In this document: in pieces, positions 4,676 through 25,991 of the stretch | Layout of the letters: every line of letters begins with the position of its first letter | Position numbering within the stretch: the stretch's first letter is position 1 | Origin: an uncultured Acidobacteriota bacterium | Lineage (GTDB): Bacteria; Acidobacteriota; Blastocatellia; RBC074 | Direction of reading: 5' to 3' | NCBI GenBank assembly: GCA_903862855.1 | Contig: CAIOZW010000046.1 | Coordinates: forward strand, 18,587 to 82,586 | DNA: 64,000 nucleotides | Translations under genes and position numbers: made by a program | Notes under the pieces: model-generated | The model's database searches: none | What the model was told of the DNA's origin: nothing | The model's input: the letters and a program-made list of their open reading frames with translations, nothing else

Positions 4676-5623
4676 ATGAGACTGATCTACCTGGGAACAC
4701 CACAATTTGCCGTGCCGCCGCTTAAGAGTCTGATCGCCGCCGGTCACGAGATCCAGGCGGTGATTACTCAGCCTGACCGCCCGGTCGGGCGCAAGCAGAT
4801 ACTGACGCCACCGCCGGTAAAGGTGCTCGCGCTGGCCCACGGAATTCAGGTATACCAGCCGGAGAAGATCCGAACCCCTGAGGCGCGGGCGATCTTCGAG
4901 CCTCTCTTCAAGTCGGCCGAGGCAGCGGTCGTCGCTGCCTACGGTAGAATCCTGCCAGGCTGGATGCTCGAGGCTCCCCGTTGCGGTTGCCTCAACATCC
5001 ACTCTTCCCTGCTCCCAAAGTACCGGGGTGCGGCACCGATCAACTGGGCCATTGCCAGAGGTGAGAAAGTAACCGGAGTCACCCTCATGCAGATGGATGA
5101 GGGAATGGATACCGGGGCGATCATCGCCCAGCGAAGCGTCACAATTGGCCCGGAGGCGACGGCGGAGGAACTGACCCTGCGGCTCGCCGATCTGGGAGCG
5201 GAACTTTTGCTGGAGACCCTGCCCGCGATTGCCGACGGAAGAGTTGCGCCAGTCGCCCAGGACGACGCACAGGCGACCCTTGCCCCGATTCTCAAACGCG
5301 AGGATGGCGCAGTTGACTGGGAATTGACCGCGGAGCAGATCTGTCACCGGCGGCGCGGATTCACGCCCTTTCCCGGTTGCCACGCATTTCTCGGTGGACA
5401 ACGGTTGGAGCTGGTGACGATCAGCCCAACGGGGAATCCTTCGCTCCCGGGGGTGGCTCCAGGTACGATCACCCGGATCGAACGTGATTCATTCACCGTC
5501 AGATGCGGATCCGGGACTGAACTGCTGGTCATGGCCGTCCAGCCGGCTGGCAAGCGGGAGATGAGTGTACGCGATTTTCTGAACGGGTCGAAGCTGCAGC
5601 CCGGTGAACGGTTACAGGGATGA
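4676..5623 (+). CDS. fmt: Methionyl-tRNA formyltransferase.
   Basis: Formyltransferase N-domain with [21 protein letters not shown], plus a C-terminal Fmt domain. ATGA overlap with the downstream rsmB. Confidence 0.9.
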
Positions 5624-11274: not shown

Positions 11275-11424
11275 ATCGATCGACCCCTGACCTCGCTTGC
11301 ATTGCCGATTCTACCAATTAAAATCTATACTCGTTCCCTTCACCTGCACCTTTTTGCGGAGAGCCATTCGGATATGATGACTCCGTGATGATAACTTCTG
11401 TTGATCGAGATCAATGAGGTCGAG

Positions 11425-13140
11425 ATGAGACTTTCCATCGCCCGAACATTGCTATTGACCCTGACGCTGCTGGTCAGCTCCTGTCAGAAACCCGCCACTC
11501 CCGACAATTCAAGCACAACCAGGCCCGCCGCCCCGGCTGAATTGAAGAGCTCCCTCGCCAGTTTCAACGGTGAGAGCCTGCTTGAGCATATTCGTGTCCT
11601 CGCCTCGGATGAGTTCGAGGGGCGCGCTCCGGGAACACGCGGGGAGGAGCTGACGGTCAGGTATCTGACCGACAAGTTTACGGCTTTTGGCCTCAAACCG
11701 GGCAATCCTGATGGAACCTACATCCAGAAGGTTCCCCTGATCGGGTCGACTCCGCAGGCGAAGGTCAGCTTCACCGCCGAGTCGCGCAAGATCGAACCAG
11801 CTGAGGAAGATTTTCTGGCCCGGTCTTCGCGCTTCATCCCCGAGGTCGATCTGCGCAACTCGGAGATGGTCTTTGTCGGATATGGTGTCGTCGCGCCAGA
11901 ATACGGGTGGGACGACTTCAAGGATGTCGATGTTCGTGGCAAGACGGTCGTCATGCTGATCAACGATCCGCAGATCCCGGCCCCTCAGAATCCCGAGGAT
12001 CCGACGAAGCTCGACGAGTCCCTCTTCAAGGGGCGCGCCATGACCTACTATGGCCGCTGGACCTACAAGTTCGAGATCGCCTCCGCCAAAGGTGCTGCCG
12101 CGGCAATTATCATCCACGAGACCGCGACCGCGGGCTATCCGCTGAAGGCTCTCGCGAGCTGGCGACAGGAGAACTTCGGTCTGGCCGGATCAGAGAAGGG
12201 GCGCATCGGTGTCGAGGCCTGGCTGGCGTTCGACCGCGCAGCCGAGGTCTTCACTGCCGGCGGCCAGGATCTCAACGCACTCAAGAAGGCGGCCCTCAGC
12301 CGTGACTTCCGCCCGGTCACGCTCGGCGCCCGCGCCAACCTTGCCGTCAAATCGACCATCCGCCGCATCGAATCGAAGAATGTCGTCGCCAGACTGGAGG
12401 GATCTGATCCTGTCCTCAAAGATGAGTATGTCGTCTACACTGCACACTGGGATCACATGGGCCGGGATCCCAGACTGAGCGGCGACCAGATCTTCAATGG
12501 CGCCGTCGACAACGCCTCGGGCACGGCCTGCCTGCTCGAATGGGCACGCGTCTTTGCCAAACTCAGTCCGGCCCCCAAACGCAGCATCCTCTTTCTTGCC
12601 GTCACCGCCGAGGAGAAGGGGCTGCTCGGGGCAAAATATTATGCCGAACACCCGCTCTACCCGCTGACCAAGACACTCGCCAACCTCAACAAGGACGGGA
12701 TCAACCAGTGGGGACGGACGAGCGATATCACCGTCATCGGCCTCGGCAACTCGACCCTCGACGATCTCCTTGCCGCTGCAGCCAGTACCCAGGGCCGCAC
12801 ACTCCGGGCCGATGCGGAACCGGAGAAGGGCTACTTCTACCGCTCCGACCACTTCGAGTTCGCCAAACAGGGTGTCCCGGCGCTCAACACCGATGCCGGG
12901 GTCGAATATGTCGGCAAACCAGCCGACTATGCGAAAAAGACCCGTGACGATTACACCAACAAAGACTATCACGGTGTCGGTGATGAGGTTCGAAGTGACT
13001 GGGATCTCAGCGGTGCGATCGAGGATCTGCAACTGCTGTTGATCGTCGGCTGGGAGGTCGCCAACGGCGAGAGCTGGCCGGAATGGAGACCCGGAACCGA
13101 GTTCAAGGCTCTTCGCGAGAATAGCCTTGGCCGCCCCTGA
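11425..13140 (+). CDS. M28-family metallopeptidase with PA domain (secreted/lipoprotein aminopeptidase).
   Basis: Lipoprotein-like signal LLVSSC. M28 zinc-ligand blocks [20 protein letters not shown] and YRSDHFEF. Start chosen at ATG 11425; the ORF-track start at 11401 is a TTG. Confidence 0.8.
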
Positions 13141-13432
13141 GCCTCCTCATAGAATGGCAGGCGGGAGAGGCGATCCGTCACTCCTGCCTGTCGTCCGCCC
13201 AACCGCGCTGACTGTTCCAATCGGCCCCCCCATCTCCCAACATTGAAAACCACTAATCCCGAATATTCACTCCTTTTTGTTACAGCCCTATTGTGACAGC
13301 CCATAATTGATTCTCAATATCTGAATTGATTTACGGCGACGGTCAAATTCACCTCTTAATAAATAAATTGTATATAGCTCCCGTGCTAAGTTACGTCGTA
13401 TTTTTAATTTGAGCCGAGTCGAACGAAGGCAA

Positions 13433-16400
13433 ATGACAACCTCATTGATTGGCCTCGGCGATCTGGATGTATGGAAGAAGAGACAACTGCACACGGGGCG
13501 ACTCCTGAGAATGAAACACTATATTTTGCGACATCGAGCAAGCACTCTCTCGATTCTGGCCACGGTAATTCTGATGCTGGTCGGGATGATTGAGAGAGCA
13601 GATCTTCCTGACTCACCCAATCGACCGAGACGTGACCGGGATAGAGGTTCATCAGTGGATCCGCGCAATTCAGCCGGACGGCTCACCGCCATTCCGAAGC
13701 TTCCGGAAGGAGTCAGGGACGGAGACTGGCAAGGGATCGTTGCCGCTCATGAGCAGGCAAAGTATGAGATTCGCAGCGACGGGCGCGCTTGGAAGGCGTG
13801 GAATCCAGGCCAGCAATGGATGACCATTTTCGACCGGCGCGGTTTTTTGACGAGGTCGACCACCAGGACGGGCCGCGATAACTGGTCGTGGGGGTTGGAG
13901 CTGCAGGGATATGGAATTGGAATCGAGCAGACGGAACTGAAGAGTCTGGTGCCGGAGGTGCGCACATCCGGAGGCAGATTGAGCTACGACCGAATCGATC
14001 GTCAAGGACGGAAGATCGAGGAGTGGTACGAGAACGATCAGCGCGGTTTTGAGCATGGCTTCACGATCTTTGAGCGCCCCGCTGCGCGTGCGGTGGGCGG
14101 TGAGCTGACGGTTCGTCTTCGGATTCGAGGAGATCTTCAGGCAAATCGGTCGAGCGATGGACGACTGATCTCGTTTGAGCAGGAGAATGGCGAGCAGATG
14201 CTAAGCTACAGCTGGCTGAAGGCGTGGGACGCGACGGGCCGGGAGCTTCCATCCCATTTCGTTGACTTGGGGCCGCGTGAGTTCGGGATCGCCGTCGAGG
14301 AAAACGAAGCCGTCTATCCGATCACCATCGATCCGCTGGCGCAGCATACCTTCCTAAAGGCCAGCGTGCACAGCCCGACCGGAGAGGAGTTCGGCACCTC
14401 GGTGGCAATCTCCGGCGACACCGCCGTCGTGGGTGCGCCAAGCGATGACAGTGGATCCAGAGGAATCAACCAGCCACCAGACTTCGTCTACCCTTACGAC
14501 AATTCTGGAGCGGCCTTTGTCTTCGTGAGAAAAGATGGGATCTGGACGCAGCAGGCCCACCTGAAGTCGAGCAATTCGTGGACTGGTGACAGGTTCGGGA
14601 TCTCCGTGGCTATCTCCGGAAACACGATCGTGGTCGGAGCGAGCGGGGAGAGCCAGACCACCGACGGGGTCGACGGAGAACAGTGCCTTCTGGGTAGCGT
14701 CCCGTGCTCTCGAACAGATATTTATCCCATCTACACTGCGCCGGGAGTTGGGGCGGCCTACGTCTTTGTCCGCACCGGGACAACCTGGGTGCAGCAGAAC
14801 TATCTCAAGGCAAGCAACTCAGAGGGGGATGACTATTTTGGATGTTCTGTCGCAATTCACGGTGACACGATCGTTGTTGGGGCCAACGAGGAGGACAGTG
14901 GAGCGAGCCTCAATGGTAACCAGAGCGACAACAGTGTTGCCGGTGCCGGAGCCGCCTATGTCTTCTTTCGAAATGGAACATCCTGGATTCAGCAGGCCTA
15001 TCTGAAGTCCGCCTTGCCCGCTGCCAATGATCAGTTTGGATACGCAGTGGCGATTCACAACAACACAGCGATCATTGGTGCAGTCTTTCAGGGGGATGGG
15101 GCAGCAGTCTCCGGCGCCGCCGGCGTATTTGTACGCAGCGGTTCAACCTGGAGTCAGCAAGCTCTCCTGAAGGCTCCAACACCAGTTTCGGGTGACTATT
15201 TTGGTGCAGCAGTGGCAGTGTGGGGAGACCGGGTGGTGGTTGGTGCACAGGCTGAGGATACCAACGGAACCGATTCCGGGGCGGCCTATGTCTTCAAAAG
15301 GACGGGCACTTCCTGGAATCGGGAAGCAACACTCAAGCCGAGTGATACTGACGCCGATGACAACTTCGGATATGCCGTCGCGATTCAGGGTGAGGCGATC
15401 ATCGTTGCCGCCTCCAACGAAAATACGGTTGCCGAGGGAGCGGCCTACCTGTTCTACCTCCAATCCACTAATTGGGTCGAGGAGAAGGTTCTCCGGGGTC
15501 GGAAGACGGAGCCCCTTGATCGATTTGGTTCGTCGATCGGATTCTCCGAGGATATTGCAATCATCGGGGCACGCTATGAAGAGAGCAATGCGACGGGCAT
15601 CAATGGAGATGAGGAAAACAATCTGTTATCGCAGTCCGGTGCAGCATACACTTTCGATATCGAGCCAATGCAGATGGTCACCCGGATCGTCGCCGACACC
15701 GGACAGGTCAGTCCAGGTACGGTCGCAACCATCTACATTACCATTACCAATCCATCATCAATCAGCCGGAGTACAAACATCGACTTCACCGTGCCAGATG
15801 GACTGATCCTGATCCCCGGAAGCTGCAATGGGGGTGGAGGAGTATGCACGATGACTCAGAGTACAGCGATCTCCGTTGATGAAAGCAATCGGAACAAGCT
15901 CCGTGGAAAAGCGGGCCTCGACGCCTCAAGCTCCGGTCCGTGGCAGATCTTCTGGACAGGATCGATTGCTGCCAATGGCTCGATCGTCATCAGTTTTCAG
16001 GTACAGGTGGGGGGCCAAGCCGCGTCAGGGACGCAGTTCTGCTTCCCGGTGATCAACTCGGGAGTGACACAGAGCATCTGTTTCAGCGTCACGGCCCCAC
16101 CGCCAGGGCCTGGTATTATCGCTCCAACCGCCGCCGCTGCCAGTCAACTCAAGGCTGGCAGCGTTCTAATCTATAACCTCTACACGTCAGGGCTCAATAC
16201 AAACTTCCAGGATACCCGACTGACTATCACCAACATCAGTCCGGTCAACGGGGTCAATGTCCACCTCTTCTTCATCGACGGTTCGAACTGTACGGTCGCC
16301 GATCAGTTTGTCAGGCTGACCCAGAATCAGACGGTGAGCATGCTCGCGAGTGATGTCGATCCCGGAGTGACCGGCTATGTCATCGCCGTCGCCACGGATG

Positions 16401-16993
16401 AGCGGGGCTGTCCGATCAACCAGAATGAACTGATTGGTGGGGCACTGGTCAGGTTCGAGCAGGGACACCGAGCCTATCTGCCGGCGCTAGGGATCTCCGC
16501 GCTGACCGGTCAATTGCCCTCATGTACTGACAGCTCGGTGACGGCAACACTCAACTTTGATGGGGTGAGGTACAACACACTGCCCCGCACACTGGCTCTC
16601 GACAGCCTCCCCTCGCGGGCCAACCTGAACGAGACGATGCTGATCGTCAACCGACTCGGCGGTGATCTTTCGACCGGAACCTCGAGGCTCGAGTCGATCG
16701 CCGGGCTGCTCTTTGACGACCAGGAGTCCGCACAGAGTTTCGTGCTCACGGGGGGAACCTGCCAGTTGATCGGCATACTTGGAAACAACTTTCCCCGGAC
16801 CTCACCGCGTTACGACACGGTGATTCCCACTGGCCGGACAGGGTGGATGAAGATGAGCCAGATCAATGATGGCGCAATCAGTGGAGCAATGATCAACCAC
16901 TCGACCATTGGCTTCAGTCAGGGGCATAACCTGCACGTGTTGACGACAACGAGTACGGCCAGCCTGACCATTCCGGTCTTTCCGGCTCTTTGA
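13433..16993 (+). CDS. Very large secreted protein: N-terminal region, a 7-bladed FG-GAP/integrin-alpha-like beta-propeller, a DUF11/CARDB-like repeat, and a ~280 aa unassigned Cys-containing C-terminal domain shared with the gene at 20233-23601.
   Basis: Repeated FG-GAP-like blades (DxFGxSVAIxGDTxVVGAxxxD) occur about 7 times. The C-terminal domain is 60-65% identical in aa to the C-terminus of the Kelch protein. Alternative starts exist at TTG 13409 and ATG 13511; the latter gives a signal peptide. Confidence 0.7.
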   Translation: MTTSLIGLGDLDVWKKRQLHTGRLLRMKHYILRHRASTLSILATVILMLVGMIERADLPDSPNRPRRDRDRGSSVDPRNSAGRLTAIPKLPEGVRDGDWQGIVAAHEQAKYEIRSDGRAWKAWNPGQQWMTIFDRRGFLTRSTTRTGRDNWSWGLELQGYGIGIEQTELKSLVPEVRTSGGRLSYDRIDRQGRKIEEWYENDQRGFEHGFTIFERPAARAVGGELTVRLRIRGDLQANRSSDGRLISFEQENGEQMLSYSWLKAWDATGRELPSHFVDLGPREFGIAVEENEAVYPITIDPLAQHTFLKASVHSPTGEEFGTSVAISGDTAVVGAPSDDSGSRGINQPPDFVYPYDNSGAAFVFVRKDGIWTQQAHLKSSNSWTGDRFGISVAISGNTIVVGASGESQTTDGVDGEQCLLGSVPCSRTDIYPIYTAPGVGAAYVFVRTGTTWVQQNYLKASNSEGDDYFGCSVAIHGDTIVVGANEEDSGASLNGNQSDNSVAGAGAAYVFFRNGTSWIQQAYLKSALPAANDQFGYAVAIHNNTAIIGAVFQGDGAAVSGAAGVFVRSGSTWSQQALLKAPTPVSGDYFGAAVAVWGDRVVVGAQAEDTNGTDSGAAYVFKRTGTSWNREATLKPSDTDADDNFGYAVAIQGEAIIVAASNENTVAEGAAYLFYLQSTNWVEEKVLRGRKTEPLDRFGSSIGFSEDIAIIGARYEESNATGINGDEENNLLSQSGAAYTFDIEPMQMVTRIVADTGQVSPGTVATIYITITNPSSISRSTNIDFTVPDGLILIPGSCNGGGGVCTMTQSTAISVDESNRNKLRGKAGLDASSSGPWQIFWTGSIAANGSIVISFQVQVGGQAASGTQFCFPVINSGVTQSICFSVTAPPPGPGIIAPTAAAASQLKAGSVLIYNLYTSGLNTNFQDTRLTITNISPVNGVNVHLFFIDGSNCTVADQFVRLTQNQTVSMLASDVDPGVTGYVIAVATDERGCPINQNELIGGALVRFEQGHRAYLPALGISALTGQLPSCTDSSVTATLNFDGVRYNTLPRTLALDSLPSRANLNETMLIVNRLGGDLSTGTSRLESIAGLLFDDQESAQSFVLTGGTCQLIGILGNNFPRTSPRYDTVIPTGRTGWMKMSQINDGAISGAMINHSTIGFSQGHNLHVLTTTSTASLTIPVFPAL

Positions 16994-17194
16994 GCAACAA
17001 GCGGACTGACGGTTTACCACCTCAACCAACGGCTGCTGGTTGATCACCTCATTCAGCAACACAAAAATCCATCGATCAGGATGGATGGGGAACGTTTACT
17101 TTGGCGCGGGCCAGGATGCGGCGCCCCGTTGCGGCACGTCAATAAGTGCACCTGCAGATCCGAAGGGATAGTGCGATTCCCCTCGCACTTCTTA

Positions 17195-17428
17195 TGACAC
17201 AAACCTCTGACAGAAACATCGTCACTGCTTGTGTAACGATCCTCGAAAGCCACTGAAGACTGGTACCTGATGATCCCACGCCATACCATTTCATTGCCGT
17301 ACCGCTACTAGTGCTGATTTTGGTCACCTGGAATCATCACGCCTGGCTCGATCCAATCCCCATCTCCACTTCTTCGCCGTGACTCTATCTCCAATTTTTG
17401 ACCAGCATGATATCGCTCAGTCCAACAT
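17195..17428. repeat. Copy A of a ~215 bp non-coding repeat (about 96% identical to 23645-23866). It overlaps the last 14 codons of the regulator gene.
   Basis: Direct near-identity with copy B from tgacacaaac to ttttgaccagcat. Copy A has an extra 13-nt tandem duplication at its 5' end. Confidence 0.7.
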
Positions 17429-19505
17429 ATGGACGGCTAACGGCATAGCGCCGCTCATCTCTGGCGACGGTGAGCGAGTAGAGTCCATTGGCAGTGGCCT
17501 CGACAACCCTTCCCAGAGTTGTGATCCGGCGAGTCCGAAGATCGAGTCGCTCGATGGATGAAGCGGGCCCGGCTTCATAGTGGAAGAAGTAGATGGCATC
17601 TTTGCCGATATCCCAATTGCGATCAACATAGAGATTGGCCAGCTCGACGACCTCTGACTCGGTACCCGTGGCAAGATCGAACTGTACCAGCCGATTGTTT
17701 CGGCTATGGTAGAGAGTTTTGCCATCGGGCGAAAGTATCGGACACGTCCGCGTGTTTGTACCCGGCGGTGTGACAATGACCGCCTCTCCCCCCGATACCC
17801 TAACCTTCCAGGTCTGGTATGCAGTGCGGGGTATAGCCCGATTTGAAGAGTAATAGATCCACTCCCCTCCAGGTGCCCAGAATGGAAGGACGTTCGATCC
17901 AATCGAATCGCTGACCCTTGCCGTTTGAGCGCCATTGAGATCGATCGTGTAGATGTCACTGTCTCCCCTGTTCCGACGGTCAAAAACAATTCGGGTACCA
18001 TCCGGAGACCACCGTGGACTTCCCACACCCAGCTCTCTGAAGTTGGTCAACTGCCTCACCTTGGAGCAATCAGCGTTGACTTGGTAAATCTCATCCCATC
18101 CAGATCGATCTGATCCAAAGACCAGTTGTGACCCATCAGGGGAGAGTTGGGGAAAGTTGTCGGCTCGGGTTGAATTGATTACACAAGGTTGATCTTTTTG
18201 ACTGGAGAGGTTGTAAACCTCGATTCGAAAGTCGATCACCTCACTGGTATATGCAAGGAGCGCGCCATTCCGTTCGATGGAGAAGGATGTAATCGGCACC
18301 GGTACCGAGGAAACTGGTGTTGCTTTATCACCATTCAGACCAACCTGGTAGAGCTGACCTGGACCACCCTGTCGTGAAATAAATAAGATCTTCGTGCCAT
18401 CAGTATCCCAGCTAAGGGAACCCGGTTGAATCAGGTAGCGTTCTTTTGTCAGCTCGCGGATTTGGCCACTAGCTAAATCGACAATCGTGACGTGATTATC
18501 CTCGTTACCTTTTGAACGGAGGAAAGCAACTGAGCGACCATCTGGAGAGAAACGCGGAGTTGAATCATAAATGGTACCTGCCGCATCCTGGCGGGTGATC
18601 TGCTGCCGCACGAATCCGTCAACAGAGATAATGAACAGTCCCATCCCTCCACCAGCGCCAGCAAGTCCGGTCACAACCAGTTTTTTGCCATCGGGAGACC
18701 AGTCCAAACCACCATCAACCCGGGCCAATTCCCGCTCGGGTCCTCCAAGGGTTGGAACGATAATCAGATGGTTCGGCGAACCAGCCTTTTCATCGACCCG
18801 CTGAAATGCAAGTTGCAGTCCATCTGGTGACCAGACAGGCTGCAGATCCGCCCCTGGATTTGTTGTGACCCTGACTTGCTTGCCACCATTGGTCTGCTGA
18901 ATGTAGATATCACGATTATTAATATCTCCACCGTCCCAGGTATAGGCGATGAAATGGCCATCGGGTGAGAGTGCCGGATACTGCTCGACACCAGGATAGG
19001 CCGTAAGCTGAATCGGTAATGGCATTTCCCAAGATGCAAGCCGTTGAGAGCGAACCAACACCAGCACACCAATAATCGCCGCGATCAAGAGAATGGCCAG
19101 TAGACCTGCCACAATTAGCCAGACCTGTTTATTGCGCGACATTTCATCCAACCGGCCTGTGTTGACCTCAGCAACCGGTGGGGTCACCGAATCGTTGACA
19201 ACCGTCACCTCCGGTTGGAACCTATAGCCAAAGCCTTGGACTGTAATAATGACTGTTGGATTGCGCGGATCGTCACGAAGCAACCGGCGAATCGAGTGGA
19301 TCTGGTTGGAGAGATTTCCCTCCTCGACATCCTGATCTGGCCAGACTTGTTGGAGGATCTCGTTCTTGGTGAGCAGCCGACCTGCATTCGTCACGAGCAT
19401 TAACAGTATGTCGTACCTCTTGCGGGTCAAGGGCACAAGGTCATTGCCATCGATCAAAACTACCTTATCGGTATCCAGAATAAATGGCCCAAAGTGATAC
19501 CGCAT
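17385..19505 (-). CDS. CadC/ToxR-like one-component transcriptional regulator: OmpR/PhoB-type winged-helix DNA-binding domain, a single TM helix, and a periplasmic TolB-like (PD40/WD40-like) beta-propeller.
   Basis: N-terminus has LTRKRYDILLMLVTNAGRLLTKNEILQQVW...GYRF (trans_reg_C). The TM segment is VWLIVAGLLAILLIAAIIGVLVLV. At least 8 PD40-like repeats of the SPDG type. Confidence 0.8.
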   Translation of the reverse strand: MRYHFGPFILDTDKVVLIDGNDLVPLTRKRYDILLMLVTNAGRLLTKNEILQQVWPDQDVEEGNLSNQIHSIRRLLRDDPRNPTVIITVQGFGYRFQPEVTVVNDSVTPPVAEVNTGRLDEMSRNKQVWLIVAGLLAILLIAAIIGVLVLVRSQRLASWEMPLPIQLTAYPGVEQYPALSPDGHFIAYTWDGGDINNRDIYIQQTNGGKQVRVTTNPGADLQPVWSPDGLQLAFQRVDEKAGSPNHLIIVPTLGGPERELARVDGGLDWSPDGKKLVVTGLAGAGGGMGLFIISVDGFVRQQITRQDAAGTIYDSTPRFSPDGRSVAFLRSKGNEDNHVTIVDLASGQIRELTKERYLIQPGSLSWDTDGTKILFISRQGGPGQLYQVGLNGDKATPVSSVPVPITSFSIERNGALLAYTSEVIDFRIEVYNLSSQKDQPCVINSTRADNFPQLSPDGSQLVFGSDRSGWDEIYQVNADCSKVRQLTNFRELGVGSPRWSPDGTRIVFDRRNRGDSDIYTIDLNGAQTARVSDSIGSNVLPFWAPGGEWIYYSSNRAIPRTAYQTWKVRVSGGEAVIVTPPGTNTRTCPILSPDGKTLYHSRNNRLVQFDLATGTESEVVELANLYVDRNWDIGKDAIYFFHYEAGPASSIERLDLRTRRITTLGRVVEATANGLYSLTVARDERRYAVSRPYVGLSDIMLVKNWR

Positions 19506-20232
19506 AGATCTGATAACCTCTACCCCAACATCTCAGTTGTTCGAGCTGAAGAACTGTTGTTGCTCGATTATTGTGATTTTGAGGAATGTGAACGAGCACC
19601 AACCGGGACTGTCTGTACGGTTGTGCTCCCTTGTTTCTTCAAGCATTTTTGACCATTTACTTCACCTCTATTCCTTACGATCTGTATTGTAGACTACTGA
19701 TCCATTCAATGGGAAGCAGGAGCCAGGCGGCCAACTGGTGTTAATCTCACTGCTCTCTGTAGGCAGTCCCAAGTCAATAACTATCCACCCCATTCCATTT
19801 CATAACGGATTCCGAATGCATAATCAGGCACTTCAACGCTGAATTGATAAATTTTGAGACTCTTTTCAACTGGCTTTATGAGAATTTTAAGAATTTTAAC
19901 CTCCGCTAAAGGATTTTGGTGGAACATTCTACATAGATTTGAATTTCTTAGATCGGCAAATTAATAGCTCTCGGTAACCATATTCAACAATGAGAAGACC
20001 AGGGAGAAGACTGGGGCCTTCCGTTTACAAAGTCAGGCTTGAATTTAAAGACCTGCTGTTTTGCTTGAAGCATCTTTGCCCCTGAGTCACTTGATTGTTC
20101 AATAATTCCAAAATTTAAGCATGGCTTCTATCTGGCCACTGTGAATAGATAACACCCGATCTCCTGGCATTCATCAAGAATTGATGATTTTTCTAAGATT
20201 ACGGCTGCACATACAAAGAAAGGAATTGTTAA
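19506..20232. promoter_or_regulatory. A 730 bp strongly AT-rich divergent intergenic region between the regulator and the Kelch gene. It contains gaatttta and ttgaattt direct repeats that may be promoter/operator sites.
   Basis: GC falls to roughly 35-40% against ~60% flanks. Motifs gagaattttaagaattttaac and gatttgaatttctt / cttgaatttaaag. Confidence 0.35.
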
Positions 20233-23200
20233 ATGATATTCCAGTCATCGTTGAAGAGATATAAAATGACTTTTTCGGTCATTCTTCTACTCCTATTGAT
20301 AGTCAGTAGGCCACAAAATGATGATGTCAGTTCGTCGCATAACCGATCACAATTCAGAGAAGGCTCAGTGCAAGTGGACGGGGTTGAATATTACGGACAA
20401 GTCGTAGGTGGAGCTCACACCGACTTCAAGCCTGCGGTGCAGCCGATTGTGAGCCGGAAGAATAGCCAACTGGGGCTTTTCTTTCCAGAGAGGGCCAATG
20501 AACCCTTTGTTGTCGATGCTGAAGGAGTTCGTGTCACGCTCAAGGCCATCGGTGTGAACGCTGCTCCAATCAAGGTTGGTGAGGGGGAGATTCGTTACCA
20601 GGCGGTCTACACCAAGACAGACAGTCTCCACAAGATAGAAGATGGTCGGAGCGAGGAGTTTCTCTATCTACACGACAAGACTGCCCCAACCAGCTTCGAG
20701 TATGAGTTGACTGCGATTGATGGAACTGACGACGTCTCGCTTAAGTCAGGAGCGATCATCTTCAGTCGCAGTGGAAGCCCAAAACTTCAGATTGAGGCAC
20801 CTTGGGTGATCGACGCTGATGGAAAGCGAAGCGATGAAGCCGTGCGCTGGGAACTTGCTCCATCAGATGATAACGGGAGCCGCCGCTTGCGGCTCAATCT
20901 TGACCCCACAGGTCTGCGTTATCCCCTGACTGTCGATCCGAGCTGGTCGGTTGTTGGATCAATGTCTGTCTCACGTGGTGCGCCAATGGCAGTAAAGCTC
21001 CAAAATGGCAAGGTACTCGTTGTGGGGGATTCGAGTACTTGCGAGCTCTACGATCCAGCTGCGGGGACTTGGAGCACAACCGGATCGCTCTCAGGGTTTA
21101 GAGGTGACGCAACACTTACTCTGTTACAAGATGGAAGGGTTCTTGCAGCCGGTGGGTATGATGGTGCAAGTACATACGGAATGGCCAGCGCAGAGATCTA
21201 TAACCCGTCAACTGGAACCTGGAGCTTGACCGGATCGCTTAGTCAAAAGAGGCAGTCGCATACCGCTACATTGTTGCAAGATGGAAAAGTATTAGTAGTT
21301 GGTGGATACAACTATCCATTTACCGGAGCTGGCACCGACCTCGAATATCCTGAATTGGCAGAGATATATAATCCTTCCACAGGTACTTGGACATCTGCTG
21401 GTAATTCAAGACCGCGTTTGTACCATAAGGCAACTCGGCTAAACAACGGTAAGGTGCTAGTTGTAGGTGGGTATAATAATACCGTCGGAAATACGCAGAC
21501 TGCCGAGCTCTTTGATCCAACTACCAGTAGCTGGGCCGATGCGGGGTCGACCGGAACTCGAATGGAACCCACGGCAACGCTTCTTTCTAATGGCAAAGTA
21601 CTAGTCGTCGGTGGTCGAACCTCTGGAGCTCCTGGATCAGATTCTTCACTGACAACCTCATTGATTTACGATCCAGTGGCTGGAACCTGGTCAAGTACTG
21701 GATCACTAAGTGGGAAGCGCGCGGATCACACTGCAACTTTGTTGTCAAATGGTAACGTTCTGGTTACCGGAGGCGAAAGTCCCCTATTAACATCTTTGTC
21801 AACTTCAGAGATCTATGATTCGACTGCGGGAACTTGGAGTTCATCAGGATCAATGGCAACTGCGCGTCGAAGACATCAGGCAGTATTACTTACAGGTGGG
21901 GCCACGCTAATCATTGGAGGATTTTCAGACAGCACCACAAAGCTGAGCAGTGCTGAGCGCTATGGCGATCCGAATCAGGCCCCGACCATCACGGCAGCGA
22001 GTGGGGTGTCACGAACGGCGGGAAGCGGTTCGAGTAACTCAACCATCGCCACGGTAACCGACGCCGAGACCGCCGTGGGAAGTTTGACCGTCACTGTTAC
22101 CAGCACCAATCCTTCGAATGGGGTGACTGTCTCAAACATTGCCAATACGACTGGAACGATCACTGCTGACATCGTTGCCGCGAGTGGAGCGACGAACGCG
22201 ACCTTCACGCTCCAAGTGAGTGATGGAACTGCAACTACAACTGCCCAGCTTAACGTAACCGTGTCGTCCACACCACCCGTGACTGTTGATACTGGTGATG
22301 CCAGTGGTAGTGGGGTGTCAGCGCAGACTACACCAGGAAGTGTCATTCCTTTGACACAGGTACTTCGCAACAATACATCCACCCCAGTGACTACGACATA
22401 TGTCGGGACTCTGCCCAATGGGTTGGAGCTGGTCACTGGAGGCTGTCAAGCAAACATTGGAACCTGCACTGTTGGTCCTCTTATCGCGCCCTATAATGGG
22501 CCGGATTCACTCCGGCGCAAATTTGTCCAGACTGCTTTGCAAAGTAATGGAGTTGCGACCTGGGTTGGCACAATTCCGGCTAACAGCACGGTGACGATCA
22601 CGTTGCTAGTCAAGGTTAACCAAGACGCATCCAGCGGGACTCTCTGTATCGCATCGACAATTGGTGGAGTAGGAGCGACATCCTCCTGTGTCAAGATTGT
22701 AAACTCATTTGCAGGTCCTGGATTCCCCCAGATTTTTGCTTCGCCACCCAGTCAACAACGCCCGGGGAGTCTGCTCATCTACAACCTTTACACCTCCGGA
22801 ACCAGCAGCGCTTCACAAGACAGCAGAATCGCCTTGACCAACACCAACTCGGTCAATCCGGTCTCGGTGCACCTCTTTATGGTCGATGGGTCGAACTGTT
22901 CGGTTGCCGATCTCTACGTGACACTGACGCAGAATCAGACGGTAAGCCTGATGGCGAGTGATCTCGATCCCGGAATTACCGGGTACATTATCGCTGTCGC
23001 CACTGACAAAAATGGATGTCCAGCCATTCACAACGACCTGATTGGCGAAACATTCGTGAAGTTCGAGAGTGGTCATCGAGCAAACCTGCCGGCGCTCGGC
23101 GTCGCCGGTCTTCTTCCGGGAAATCCACTCTGTACACCAGACTCGGTTACCGCGACCATTGCCTTCGATGGCGTACAGTACAACGAACTGCCAAGATCTC

Positions 23201-23601
23201 TGACCATCAGCAACCTGCCGCCACCGGCGACTGGCAATAGTACAATGCTCATCGTCAACCGCATCGGAGGAGATATGGCCGTCGGAGCACAGACTCTCGG
23301 AAATATTGCCGGCTTACTGTTTGACGATACCGAGACTTCACAGAGCTTCGTTCTAACCGGAGGTAGCTGCCAGTTGCGAGGTATCCTCGGGAACAACTTC
23401 CCCCGGACGGCTCCACGCTACACGACGGTCATACCCGCCGGACGGTCGGGGTGGATGAAGTTCTGGACGAACGACAATCAGGCGATCACTGGTGCGGTGA
23501 TCAACGAGGCCTCGATCGGGTTCAGTAACGGTCATAACCTCCACTATCTGACAACAACCAATACCGCCAGCCTGACTATTCCGGTCTTCCCGGCTGAATA
23601 G
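20233..23601 (+). CDS. Large secreted Kelch/galactose-oxidase-type beta-propeller protein with a DUF11-like segment and the same unassigned C-terminal domain as the 13433-16993 protein.
   Basis: Signal peptide. Repeated Kelch-like blades (GKVLVVGG / DGRVLAAGGYDG ... Y.P.TGTWS). C-terminal 280 aa are paralogous to the FG-GAP protein. The N-terminal 2.5 kb has markedly lower GC. Confidence 0.7.
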   Translation: MIFQSSLKRYKMTFSVILLLLLIVSRPQNDDVSSSHNRSQFREGSVQVDGVEYYGQVVGGAHTDFKPAVQPIVSRKNSQLGLFFPERANEPFVVDAEGVRVTLKAIGVNAAPIKVGEGEIRYQAVYTKTDSLHKIEDGRSEEFLYLHDKTAPTSFEYELTAIDGTDDVSLKSGAIIFSRSGSPKLQIEAPWVIDADGKRSDEAVRWELAPSDDNGSRRLRLNLDPTGLRYPLTVDPSWSVVGSMSVSRGAPMAVKLQNGKVLVVGDSSTCELYDPAAGTWSTTGSLSGFRGDATLTLLQDGRVLAAGGYDGASTYGMASAEIYNPSTGTWSLTGSLSQKRQSHTATLLQDGKVLVVGGYNYPFTGAGTDLEYPELAEIYNPSTGTWTSAGNSRPRLYHKATRLNNGKVLVVGGYNNTVGNTQTAELFDPTTSSWADAGSTGTRMEPTATLLSNGKVLVVGGRTSGAPGSDSSLTTSLIYDPVAGTWSSTGSLSGKRADHTATLLSNGNVLVTGGESPLLTSLSTSEIYDSTAGTWSSSGSMATARRRHQAVLLTGGATLIIGGFSDSTTKLSSAERYGDPNQAPTITAASGVSRTAGSGSSNSTIATVTDAETAVGSLTVTVTSTNPSNGVTVSNIANTTGTITADIVAASGATNATFTLQVSDGTATTTAQLNVTVSSTPPVTVDTGDASGSGVSAQTTPGSVIPLTQVLRNNTSTPVTTTYVGTLPNGLELVTGGCQANIGTCTVGPLIAPYNGPDSLRRKFVQTALQSNGVATWVGTIPANSTVTITLLVKVNQDASSGTLCIASTIGGVGATSSCVKIVNSFAGPGFPQIFASPPSQQRPGSLLIYNLYTSGTSSASQDSRIALTNTNSVNPVSVHLFMVDGSNCSVADLYVTLTQNQTVSLMASDLDPGITGYIIAVATDKNGCPAIHNDLIGETFVKFESGHRANLPALGVAGLLPGNPLCTPDSVTATIAFDGVQYNELPRSLTISNLPPPATGNSTMLIVNRIGGDMAVGAQTLGNIAGLLFDDTETSQSFVLTGGSCQLRGILGNNFPRTAPRYTTVIPAGRSGWMKFWTNDNQAITGAVINEASIGFSNGHNLHYLTTTNTASLTIPVFPAE

Positions 23602-23613
23602 TCACAATCTGTC

Positions 23614-23645
23614 AAAAGAAGAGGGCCTGCTGGCCCTCTTCTTTT
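23614..23645 (+). terminator. Rho-independent terminator of the Kelch gene.
   Basis: aaaagaagagggcc-tgct-ggccctcttctttt perfect hairpin with a T-run, 13 nt after the stop codon. Confidence 0.7.
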
Positions 23646-23866
23646 GACACAAACATCATCACTGCTTGTGTAACGATCCTCGAAAGCAACTGAAGACTGG
23701 TACCTGATGATCCCCCGCCATACCATTCCATTGCCGCACCGCTACTAGTGCTGATTTTGGTCACCTGGAATCATCACGCCTGGCTCGATCCAATCCCCAT
23801 CTCCACTTCTTCGCCGTGACACTATCTCCAATTTTTGACCAGCATAATGTTACGCAGTCCGACACT
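23645..23866. repeat. Copy B of the ~215 bp repeat. It includes a 14-codon remnant (...VGLRNIMLVKNWR*) of the regulator's 3' end on the minus strand.
   Basis: About 96% nucleotide identity to 17208-17428. The remnant reading frame ends with the same stop as the regulator gene in copy A. Confidence 0.7.
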
Positions 23867-24410
23867 GGGACTGCGTTAGGGGCGCGGGACTCCGGCTCGC
23901 ATTCACTGCGCCACAGGTCAACTCCGCCTGATCATCGAGGCGATCTACCCCTGATCCGGGGTTTATTGGATTGGTCTGGTGGATGGCGATTGGCCGATGG
24001 GGTAGGGCGAATTCCATCCAGTTCGAAGAGGTATCTTCCGGGACAACCAGGCCATCCCGGCGATATCTATTTTCCCTCTCTTCTCCCTTGATATGAATTC
24101 CCATCCGGGTTCGCCTTCCGAGTCCCACAAAAAATTGAGTCAGTTCAAGTGGAGGAGACCAGATGCAGCCGTTCACTGTTAAACTATTCTCTTACCTTTT
24201 ATGCACCAGGCCGGTAATATTCTTTCAGGCGCAACGGTCGGGAAAGAGTCGGGCTGGATTCCCCCTATTCTTTAACAAGAGTTGACAAGGGTTGGGGGCG
24301 ATCTGATTACTGCGGTTATTTTGCCATCCCATCAACCTGAAAGACCGGCAAGAATGATGCCAGCTTTATCAAATGGTGTGAGCAATCCTCTGGAAACAAG
24401 GTCAAGTTCT

Positions 24411-25991
24411 ATGTTGAGAGTATCTTCATTACTACTGGTAACGATTCTGCTCTTCTGGTCAACCGCCGCCTCGGTAAAGGCGACGGACGACGTAGGTGAG
24501 TCCACTGGAGCGGCAGTCTATTTTGAAGAGAAGGAACTCTTCAGGTTGCACGACCGGGTCGGTTCAATAACGCCCACGGAGCGGGCCGAGCTGATCACAC
24601 GCCACATCGATGACCTCGCCTACAATCCGTTTCGTGAGTATGAGGGACTGACGATTGTCGAGGGTGAGTCGTGGACCGACCTGGTCGCCGCACGACGGAT
24701 CATCCTCACCCTCACCGATATCGACGCCCGCGCTGAGGGAATGGAGCGTCGCCAAATGGCAATGCGCTGCCAGGAGATCATCGATCGTGCGGTGCGCGAG
24801 GCTCGGGAACGTCACCGATCCTCTTCACGACTGAAGAGTGCGCTGATCGCCGTGTTCAACACCATACTGCTTGTGCTCGTTCTGAATCTGCTCGGACGGG
24901 CCTTCCGTTTCGCCGGTAACTGGATTGAGGGAACGCTTGGATCGACTGCCGGAAACGGCTGGCTGCAGCGGCTCCGCGTCGTCAGGTCGGGACGGTTGCA
25001 GCGATTTCTGACCGGGCCGCTTCAACTCGTTCGCCTGCTGCTGGTTCTTCTCCTCCTGGTAATCTACCTCACCTCCACGCTTGGACTCTTTCCCTCGACC
25101 CGGCGTATCGCGACGCAGATTGAAGATCAGATTCGCCAGGCCATGGCTCTCCTCTGGGAGATGTTCATCGGGTATCTTCCAAATCTCTTCGTCCTGCTGA
25201 TGATCATCCTGATTGTCTGGGGAGCACTGAAGATTGCACGCGTTGTATTTGAAGAGCTTCGCCACGGGACGGTGAAGATTATCGGGTTCGATGCCGAATG
25301 GGCCGGCTTCACCCACCGGATCGCGGCCTTTCTGATCATCATTGTCGCCGCCATTGTCGCATTTCCCTACCTGCCGGGAGCCAAGTCGCCGGCCTTCCAG
25401 GGCATCTCGATCTTTCTGGGCGTGCTCATCTCTCTCTCATCCAGTTCGCTCATCTCGAACATCCTGGCCGGAGTTATCCTGACCTATACTGGCGCTTTCC
25501 GGATCAACGACCGGATCCGCATCGGCGAGGTGACTGGCGATGTGATCGAAAAGCGGCTGCTGGTGACGATTCTGCGGACGATCAAGAATGAGGACGTCTC
25601 CATTCCCAACTCGCTGGTCATCAACAACCACATCGTCAACTACTCTGCCCAGGCCCGATCAACCGGACTGATTCTTCATAGCACGGTGACCATCGGTTAC
25701 GATACTCCCTGGAGAAAGGTGGAGGAGCTGCTGGTCAATGCCGCCCTCTCCACCCAGGGTGTCATGCCCCAACCGCCACCATTCGTGCTCCAGACGGCGC
25801 TCAACGACTTCAATGTCAGTTATGAACTGAATGCCCACACCAGTCTTCCATTCGAGATGGCCAACATCTACTCTGAACTCCACCGAAACATCCAGGAGAA
25901 GTTCACCGCAGCCGGCGTCGAGATCATGTCGCCGGGATACCTCGCGCTCCGTGATGGAAACAGATCGACCGTGCCGACGTCGAATTCCTGA
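24411..25991 (+). CDS. Mechanosensitive ion channel, MscS family, with an N-terminal signal peptide and periplasmic domain.
   Basis: TM3/MscS core ISIFLGVLISLSSSSLISNILAGVILTYTGAFRINDRIRIGEVTGDVIEKRLLVT. Start chosen at ATG 24411 (signal peptide); the ORF-track TTG at 24282 coincides with a TTGACA -35-like hexamer. Confidence 0.75.
   Translation: MLRVSSLLLVTILLFWSTAASVKATDDVGESTGAAVYFEEKELFRLHDRVGSITPTERAELITRHIDDLAYNPFREYEGLTIVEGESWTDLVAARRIILTLTDIDARAEGMERRQMAMRCQEIIDRAVREARERHRSSSRLKSALIAVFNTILLVLVLNLLGRAFRFAGNWIEGTLGSTAGNGWLQRLRVVRSGRLQRFLTGPLQLVRLLLVLLLLVIYLTSTLGLFPSTRRIATQIEDQIRQAMALLWEMFIGYLPNLFVLLMIILIVWGALKIARVVFEELRHGTVKIIGFDAEWAGFTHRIAAFLIIIVAAIVAFPYLPGAKSPAFQGISIFLGVLISLSSSSLISNILAGVILTYTGAFRINDRIRIGEVTGDVIEKRLLVTILRTIKNEDVSIPNSLVINNHIVNYSAQARSTGLILHSTVTIGYDTPWRKVEELLVNAALSTQGVMPQPPPFVLQTALNDFNVSYELNAHTSLPFEMANIYSELHRNIQEKFTAAGVEIMSPGYLALRDGNRSTVPTSNS

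Follow-up and report, generated by a model that had tools for sequence, protein, structure and literature searches.

Two nearly identical non-coding sequences in an uncultured Acidobacteriota bacterium very likely arose when the tail of a regulator gene and the spacer behind it were duplicated locally long ago, have since been kept alike by gene conversion, and are neither a conserved RNA nor a mobile element. The window, by which we mean the whole 64,000-nt stretch of DNA that we analyzed, contains only two copies of the sequence, separated by 6.4 kb. The original prediction had described a ~215-bp non-coding sequence duplicated downstream of both of the window's propeller genes, and this sequence is real, although several of the numbers attached to it need correction. 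In our view, the two copies are this similar owing to their recombination history, and purifying selection acting on an RNA or binding site is not the cause.

The copies are embedded in a short series of genes (Table 1). Copy A consists of the 3′ end of an intact regulator gene together with its downstream spacer, and copy B follows a Kelch repeat gene, so that the regulator and the Kelch gene form a 6.4-kb segment with a direct repeat on either side. The names that sources attach to homologues point to Acidobacteriota, and probably to Blastocatellia. Orthologues of the regulator have 67–79% amino acid identity to it; a search of the contigs of species-representative genomes with the regulator found no related locus. 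Downstream of one orthologue with 67% amino acid identity (contig L006, positions 4705–5200), we observed ~500 nt of G-rich tandem heptamer arrays, composed of (GGTGTCA)n, (GGGGTGA)n and (GGGGCGA)n. A separate repetition occurs inside the window's FG-GAP gene, where a 58-nt unit is present five times between 14499 and 15327 at a spacing of 165–243 nt; at the nucleotide level, these units mirror the FG-GAP repeats of the protein (...GAAYVF...G..W.QQ...).

Table 1. Genes, repeat copies and boundary features in the window (positions in the 64,000-nt stretch)
Feature	Position	Strand	Description and basis
M28 peptidase	11401–13140	+	
FG-GAP repeat protein, 1194 aa	13409–16993	+	Upstream of copy A; Pfam
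Hairpin GTGCGA-TTCCCC-TCGCAC with TTCTTAT tail	17171–17195	+	Follows the FG-GAP gene and borders copy A on its left; stem unrelated to the terminator at copy B; read from the sequence
Left edge of A/B homology in copy A (CTTCTTATGACACAAAC)	17189–17207	.	13-nt tandem insertion relative to copy B (23636–23644); alignments
Copy A core	17208–17408	.	177-nt spacer past the regulator stop plus the last 8 codons including the stop (IMLVKNWR and stop)
Regulator, 706 aa	17385–19505	-	Winged-helix Trans_reg_C, transmembrane segment and PD40/TolB-like propeller; Pfam, NCBIfam
Regulator codons just beyond the putatively converted tract in copy A	17409–17440	-	Diverged edge of homology; follows the locus tree, not the species tree
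Kelch repeat protein, 1122 aa	20233–23601	+	Upstream of copy B; Pfam
Intrinsic terminator of the Kelch gene	23610–23649	+	Perfect 18-bp palindromic hairpin plus T-run
Copy B core	23645–23845	.	Follows the terminator of the Kelch gene
Relic of a lost second regulator copy	23822–23875	-	17 codons plus stop (RSPSVGLRNIMLVKNWR and stop); in-frame stop ahead
MscS-type channel	24282–25991	+	

A repeat search of the window and a MAFFT alignment show a direct repeat that pairs 17208–17437 with 23645–23874 at 93% identity over 230 nt. Base by base, the copies differ at 7 of the 201 core positions (96.5% identity), and there are no differences at all between 17301 and 17383. The prediction had counted about 8 differences and ~96% identity; these values hold for the 201-nt core, and the longer span to which they had been assigned (17208–17428) contains 14 differences (93.7% identity) because the identity falls to 19 of 29 positions (65%) in the regulator codons from 17409 to 17437. 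The homology probably extends leftward to 17189 in copy A and 23636 in copy B, judging from a shared CTTCTT[A/T]TGACACAAAC stretch in the alignments. Across this left edge, at 17196–17218, copy A carries a 13-nt tandem duplication (TGACACAAACCTC followed by TGACAGAAAC) that copy B lacks. The dead remnant of the regulator that had been noticed in copy B is confirmed by translation, where it reads RSPSVGLRNIMLVKNWR followed by a stop, against VSRPYVGLSDIMLVKNWR and stop in copy A. Also as described, the element's GC content (49–50%) is lower than the average, here that of the window (57%), and a lower value of this kind is normal for a spacer.

The excess identity of the element over its coding neighbors is real. 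At the 30% mismatch rate of the coding flanks, the probability of observing 7 or fewer mismatches in 201 positions is 5e-22, and the coding and non-coding identities are clearly dissimilar (67–71% versus 96.5%). The adjacent coding sequence had been put at only ~70% nucleotide identity, which agrees with the 68% and 71% that we obtained for the flanking coding repeats and with the 67% of their last 250 codons. These flanks encode the C-terminal ~430 amino acids that the FG-GAP and Kelch proteins have in common (window 15698–16990 and 22318–23598), which are 53% identical and match no Pfam or NCBIfam model. Their four-fold sites are 37–39% identical (39% in the last 250 codons), a level that represents saturation. 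The ~70% nucleotide identity therefore reflects protein-level constraint on ancient paralogues, and the duplicated C-domain coding sequence is an unfair yardstick for the conservation of the element. We also considered an older conversion into the C-domain coding sequence and rejected it, as synonymous identity shows no gradient toward the 3′ end; third-position identity ranges from 27 to 53% throughout the C-domains, with no rise toward that end.

The C-domain belongs to a large family, with more than 200 homologues in Acidobacteriota/Blastocatellia, in which it is either fused to FG-GAP, Kelch, HYR, DUF11, Ig, RCC1 or delta-60 N-termini or occurs as a standalone protein of ~330 amino acids. 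The end of the domain bears a conserved ...TASLTIPVFPA motif, and in at least one other genome the domain adjoins a homologue of the regulator (EBZ36_03980/03985). The FG-GAP C-domain is up to 58% identical to proteins of other genomes, compared to 53% to its Kelch neighbor, and a search for its orthologue returned nothing above 58%, which is consistent with this gene being missing at the corresponding locus of the sister species described below. A segmental duplication that comprised the C-domain, the 3′UTR and the regulator's 3′ end, as had been proposed, is consequently doubtful: the two C-domains are saturated paralogues of an ancient family, each of them as similar to homologues in other genomes as to its partner, and a propeller gene is lacking altogether from locus A of the sister species.

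We now turn to this sister species, whose coding sequences are ~82–87% identical to those of the window at the nucleotide level. Its 'genome' is a set of short contigs from several metagenomes: L005 carries the regulator and the N-terminus of the Kelch gene, L011, L012 and L013 span the 3′ end of the regulator with the sequence behind it (locus A), and L008 carries the 3′ end of the Kelch gene and its downstream region (locus B). L008 and L013 are the only two that share a sample. The comparison takes in two lineages only, and our reconstruction of conversion events draws on few independent sequences. The orthologue of the Kelch gene, present on L008 and on a further contig, L010, shares 85% nucleotide and 90–91% amino acid identity with the window's gene.

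The element occupies the same positions in the sister species, both at locus A (L005, L011, L012 and L013) and at locus B (L008), where the window's copy B aligns from end to end with its L008 orthologue at 72–73% identity. Behind the sister's copy B lies a similar relic of the regulator (SRHYVWQRDIMLVKNWR and stop) with the same end position, and the homology of B to A ends within ~3 nt of the same place in both species. Because the sister's copy B shares its site, its relic and its end point with the window's, copy B is older than the species split. To the right of copy B, a local alignment between the species scored no better than shuffled sequences.

Locus A is arranged in another way in the sister species. 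There the regulator converges directly on the orthologue of the M28 peptidase, with 247 nt between the two stop codons, and the FG-GAP gene is absent. Aligned with L011 750–996, the window shows an indel of ~4.06 kb (~13228–17283) that takes in the left half of copy A as well as the FG-GAP gene. This left half (17208–17283) has no counterpart at the sister's locus A, and the sister's copies A and B have in common only the right half, ~105 nt, and the coding tail. The indel may represent a loss in the sister species or a gain in the window's lineage; the left half of A either disappeared from the sister species together with the FG-GAP gene or was copied from B to A by a less ordinary event. 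An integron-like cassette with an attC site as the source of the FG-GAP indel was set aside: there is no attC-like inverted repeat, the gene is 3.6 kb long, and a regulator of opposite orientation separates the 'cassettes'.

Between the species, the element has diverged about as fast as synonymous sites. The right half (17284–17384) is 69–74% identical between the window and the sister species under any pairing of loci, and the left half of the window's copies is 69–73% identical to the sister's copy B. A comparison of the species at four-fold sites gives 67.5% identity in the regulator and 70.6% in the Kelch gene, and whole coding sequences are 83–87% identical. The element's divergence therefore matches the neutral rate, with no excess constraint. 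The element also contains 4-nt indels between the species, which are not multiples of three, and thus it holds no conserved reading frame. A small protein in plus-strand frame 1, where three of the four within-window differences are synonymous, was accordingly set aside, as it has no start codon and these indels break its frame.

This rate bears directly on a second reading, in which the element is a functional RNA on the minus strand, a 3′UTR-derived sRNA or a cis-regulatory RNA, whose two copies are kept alike by selection. Such RNAs derived from 3′UTRs are chiefly known in enterobacteria, for example CpxQ and SroC. Similar to them, the element begins in a gene's last codons, directly downstream of the regulator's stop codon for its non-coding part, and runs through the 3′UTR to a hairpin, here one on the minus strand with a T-rich tail at 17240–17218. 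An RNAalifold consensus of the two window copies and L008 has 94.7% of cells paired, with 8 pairs kept through double changes. The 37 nt after the regulator's stop codon are ~84% conserved between the species, somewhat above the neutral level, and the changes since the last homogenization lie on copy A only. However, the element as a whole is no better conserved between the species than four-fold sites (68–71%) and is less conserved than the flanking coding sequence; its left half is missing at the sister's locus A; and the hairpin at 17240–17218 is not kept in the sister's copy B.

A scan of 16900–24400 against Rfam 15 at E ≤ 10 gave no match in the element and only chance matches elsewhere. 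Single-sequence folding yielded z-scores from −0.2 to −1.9 and column shuffling of the alignment yielded z-scores from −0.3 to −1.8 on both strands, neither of them significant, with two independent lineages only in the alignment. The element differs from 3′UTR-derived sRNAs in that its conservation does not exceed the neutral rate, that no conserved structure reached significance in these two lineages, that it matches no Rfam family and that copy B has no parent mRNA. Given the synonymous-rate divergence, the 4-nt indels and the results of these searches, the suggestion that the non-coding part is under stronger constraint as an sRNA or a cis-regulatory RNA is not supported, and we regard an RNA maintained by selection as quite improbable. 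The functions in this stretch are likely those of an ordinary spacer and of terminators between convergent genes.

The second part of that suggestion, that the non-coding sequence was gene-converted, is borne out by the comparison of loci within and between species. In the right half, the window's copies are 97% identical to each other; the sister's copies A and B are 87–88% identical, and 93% when L013 is compared to L008 from the same sample. Each of these values exceeds the identity between orthologues. Between 17284 and 17408, 19 to 21 informative sites group the sequences by species (the window's A with its B, and the sister's A with its B), and none groups them by locus. The assignment reverses in the tail from 17409 to 17437, where, in 29 nt only, no informative site follows the species and two follow the locus, and where the window's copy A matches the sister's copy A at 27 of 29 positions (93%) versus 65% for its match to the window's copy B. 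The boundary of the similar tract is consequently sharp. Concerted evolution is defined by high similarity within species together with high divergence between species (PMC3036644). From the aligned sequences, we judge with good confidence that the pattern observed here is concerted evolution by non-allelic gene conversion.

The sister population's copy A alleles are mosaics with B-type patches. Alleles L011 and L012 differ at 22 sites, 17 of which fall in a 120-nt stretch of the spacer (17 of 134 compared spacer positions, or 12.7%), compared to 4 of 745 coding sites (0.5%); the stop codon adds one more difference (L011 746). A cluster of six sites in L012 and L013 has the B state and matches copy B of L008. 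Conversion in the sister lineage also follows from a relative-rate test: with the regulator on L006 as the outgroup, we counted 157 versus 119 lineage-specific changes, which is far from the roughly threefold difference in rate that would be needed to account for the similarity of the sister's copies A and B if no conversion had occurred.

These data also weigh on a simpler account, a single recent duplication or patch-copy in the window's lineage alone, without recurrent conversion. One copying event of ~200 bp would by itself give the 96.5% identity and the sharp boundaries that are seen in the window. It would leave unexplained why copy B and its relic are already present at the orthologous site of the sister species with the same end point, why the tail that adjoins the core is only 65% identical, and hence old, and why the sister's own copies are 87–93% identical versus ~72% between species in the absence of strong rate heterogeneity. 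The sister's copy A alleles are, moreover, mosaic. A recent patch copied onto an older paralogue is, in addition, gene conversion itself. We therefore consider a single event unlikely, and retain recurrent conversion between the two copies as the preferred reading.

Within the window, the differences that have accumulated between the copies are unevenly distributed. Six of the seven are derived on copy A (window 17213, 17221, 17251, 17291, 17300 and 17384), with copy B in the state of the sister species, and none is clearly derived on copy B, a departure from a neutral clock with p ~0.03. The restriction of derived changes to A could hint at weak constraint on B. The Jukes–Cantor distance between the copies is ~0.036 and that between the species is ~0.35; under an assumed neutral clock, the last homogenization in this lineage would date back about one tenth as far as the separation of the species. 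The most recent conversion in the window's lineage would have covered ~200–220 bp, from 17189 or 17208 to 17408.

The edges of the copies suggest how the repeat arose. To the left of 17189 and 23636, the sequences of A and B are unrelated. The unrelated part at copy A is 195 nt long (214 nt when counted to the core at 17208) and has a hairpin at its end (17171–17188), and that at copy B measures 43 nt and consists mostly of the Kelch gene's terminator, a perfect palindrome of 18 bp. The descending arm of this terminator and its T-tract form the left limit of copy B, and its stem is kept at the sister's locus L008. On the other side, only the last 8 codons of the regulator relic lie inside the homogenized tract. 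Farther to the right of the relic, ~70 nt of the window (23916–23984) are 77% identical to L009 2215–2283, a stretch downstream of a different FG-GAP/C-domain gene in the sister's metagenome. The two share the pattern GGTCAnCTCCnCCTGATCATCG...GATCC...TTTATnGGAT...TGGTGGAT, and the window's stretch contains a terminator-like site (23949–23961); a non-coding motif that follows genes of the FG-GAP/Kelch C-domain family may be conserved here.

The sequences themselves show the repeat, its neutral-rate divergence between the species, the grouping of its copies by species, the sharp boundary of the tract and the mosaic alleles of the sister population; the recombination mechanism, the origin of the repeat and its timing we infer. 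Before the species split, a duplication would have placed a second set of the regulator's last codons, with the spacer downstream of them, immediately behind the Kelch-gene terminator. The simplest route would be a tandem duplication of the block that comprises the spacer, the regulator and the Kelch gene, followed by a deletion of nearly all of the second copy, which would leave the spacer and a 17-codon relic of the regulator's tail. Since that time, the resulting direct repeats, 6.4 kb apart, would have been repeatedly homogenized by homologous recombination between them. A tandem duplication with a subsequent deletion would account for the direct orientation of the repeats and for the 6.4 kb between them, the same length as the block, as well as for the abrupt left boundary past the Kelch terminator and for the relic to the right of B. 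In each of these respects, namely the direct orientation, a spacing equal to the spacer–regulator–Kelch block and a truncated regulator 3′ end after copy B, the repeat resembles known relics of tandem duplication. It differs from them in that the duplication is here reconstructed from its traces and in that the right flank of B has no demonstrable orthology between the species.

A further likeness to such relics is found on contig L010, which carries the junction that a duplication is expected to leave. Positions 1–2618 of this contig (ENA ERZ28656614, scaffold_21885) correspond to window 21973–23864 joined to 17321–17717: the 3′ end of the Kelch gene (98.7% identical to L008) is followed by its terminator, by the element and then by 337 nt of the intact 3′ end of the regulator (99% identical to L012 and L013). 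The switch from one locus to the other takes place inside the element, within a shared stretch of 19 nt. At its far end, the contig has 96 nt of unrelated sequence and thus a second, unexplained junction. L010 may represent the junction expected of recombination between A and B, from a tandem duplication or an excised circle, or it may be an assembly chimera. The same contig also contains a ~300-nt segment of the Kelch gene twice in tandem (2015–2321 and 2312–2618, 83% identical), which the window has once (21973–22265); either an internal domain was duplicated or the assembly is at fault.

Errors of assembly could in principle have produced the window's repeat as well. The window was taken from an assembled contig of 85.7 kb, derived from a metagenome, and assemblers err at repeats, of which L010 is perhaps one case. 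The two copies can nevertheless be told apart by 7 core positions and by their flanks, and both loci are reproduced by independent assemblies from other samples, which makes an artifact exceedingly improbable.

A small non-autonomous mobile repeat, similar to a MITE and inserted at both sites, could instead have supplied the last codons of the regulator by chance. In common with MITEs and REP-like repeats, the element is short, AT-richer and non-coding, has sharp ends and lies between convergent genes; the FG-GAP gene beside copy A is, furthermore, an indel relative to the sister species. Unlike such repeats, it has two copies only in 64 kb, and both have a counterpart at the orthologous site of the sister species, where just the left half of copy A is missing, as part of the 4-kb indel that contains a gene. 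The C-terminal codons of the regulator are also conserved in orthologues with unrelated downstream sequence (L006). The original prediction had suggested looking for terminal inverted repeats and target-site duplications. We found no terminal inverted repeats in the element, where the only inverted sequences are an internal 11-nt pair and the terminator hairpins, and no target-site duplication was evident in the flanks of either copy.

Copies elsewhere were sought with an exact 20-mer from the invariant core (CTGGAATCATCACGCCTGGC). It had no match in 185,579 species-representative genomes and none in viral contigs, and its four matches in metagenome contigs were all due to chance. Only one of the four (L002) shares as many as 26 nt, inside an unrelated GC-rich coding region (...TWNHHAWL...). 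A distant blastn search of a plasmid collection likewise gave no match. With two copies, no terminal inverted repeats, orthologous sites in the sister species and none in the genome, viral and plasmid collections, the proposal of a mobile repeat is not supported, and we assign it only a minimal probability.

The history that we favor, an old duplication followed by gene conversion, has counterparts in other bacteria. Ectopic gene conversion is known from the tufA/tufB pair and from rRNA operons. Conversion at repeat loci of Mycobacterium tuberculosis, PE_PGRS among them, has also been described (PMC13061034, PMC1762029). As in known systems of concerted evolution, the copies are alike within a genome and have diverged between species, the tract is well delimited and its flanks have diverged, alleles contain patches of the paralogue in a mosaic, and the copies are direct repeats a few kilobases apart. 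The repeat differs from these systems in its unit, a ~200-bp spacer with 8 codons, and in that one of the partners is a dead relic. The classical cases concern intact functional genes, whereas here there is no sign of a selective benefit from homogenization.

The repeats might nonetheless be kept as a substrate for the reversible amplification or excision of the 6.4-kb regulator–Kelch module, a proposal that we consider quite improbable. If it were true, the bacterium would switch the copy number, or the presence and absence, of a propeller protein, located at the surface or secreted, along with the neighboring regulator, and L010 would be a real duplication or circle junction that segregates in the sister population.

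The repeat is an ordinary product of known processes and leaves the understanding of bacterial genome evolution unchanged. It also provides a cautionary case: a repeat that is better conserved than the paralogous coding sequence around it looks like a constrained RNA, and a single comparison across species shows that its recombination history is responsible. For this uncultured Acidobacteriota lineage, the sequences document what is probably short-tract ectopic gene conversion, with the relic of a dead gene as one partner. As a module of a regulator and a propeller gene, 6.4 kb in length, lies between recombinogenic direct repeats, its copy number could vary between strains.
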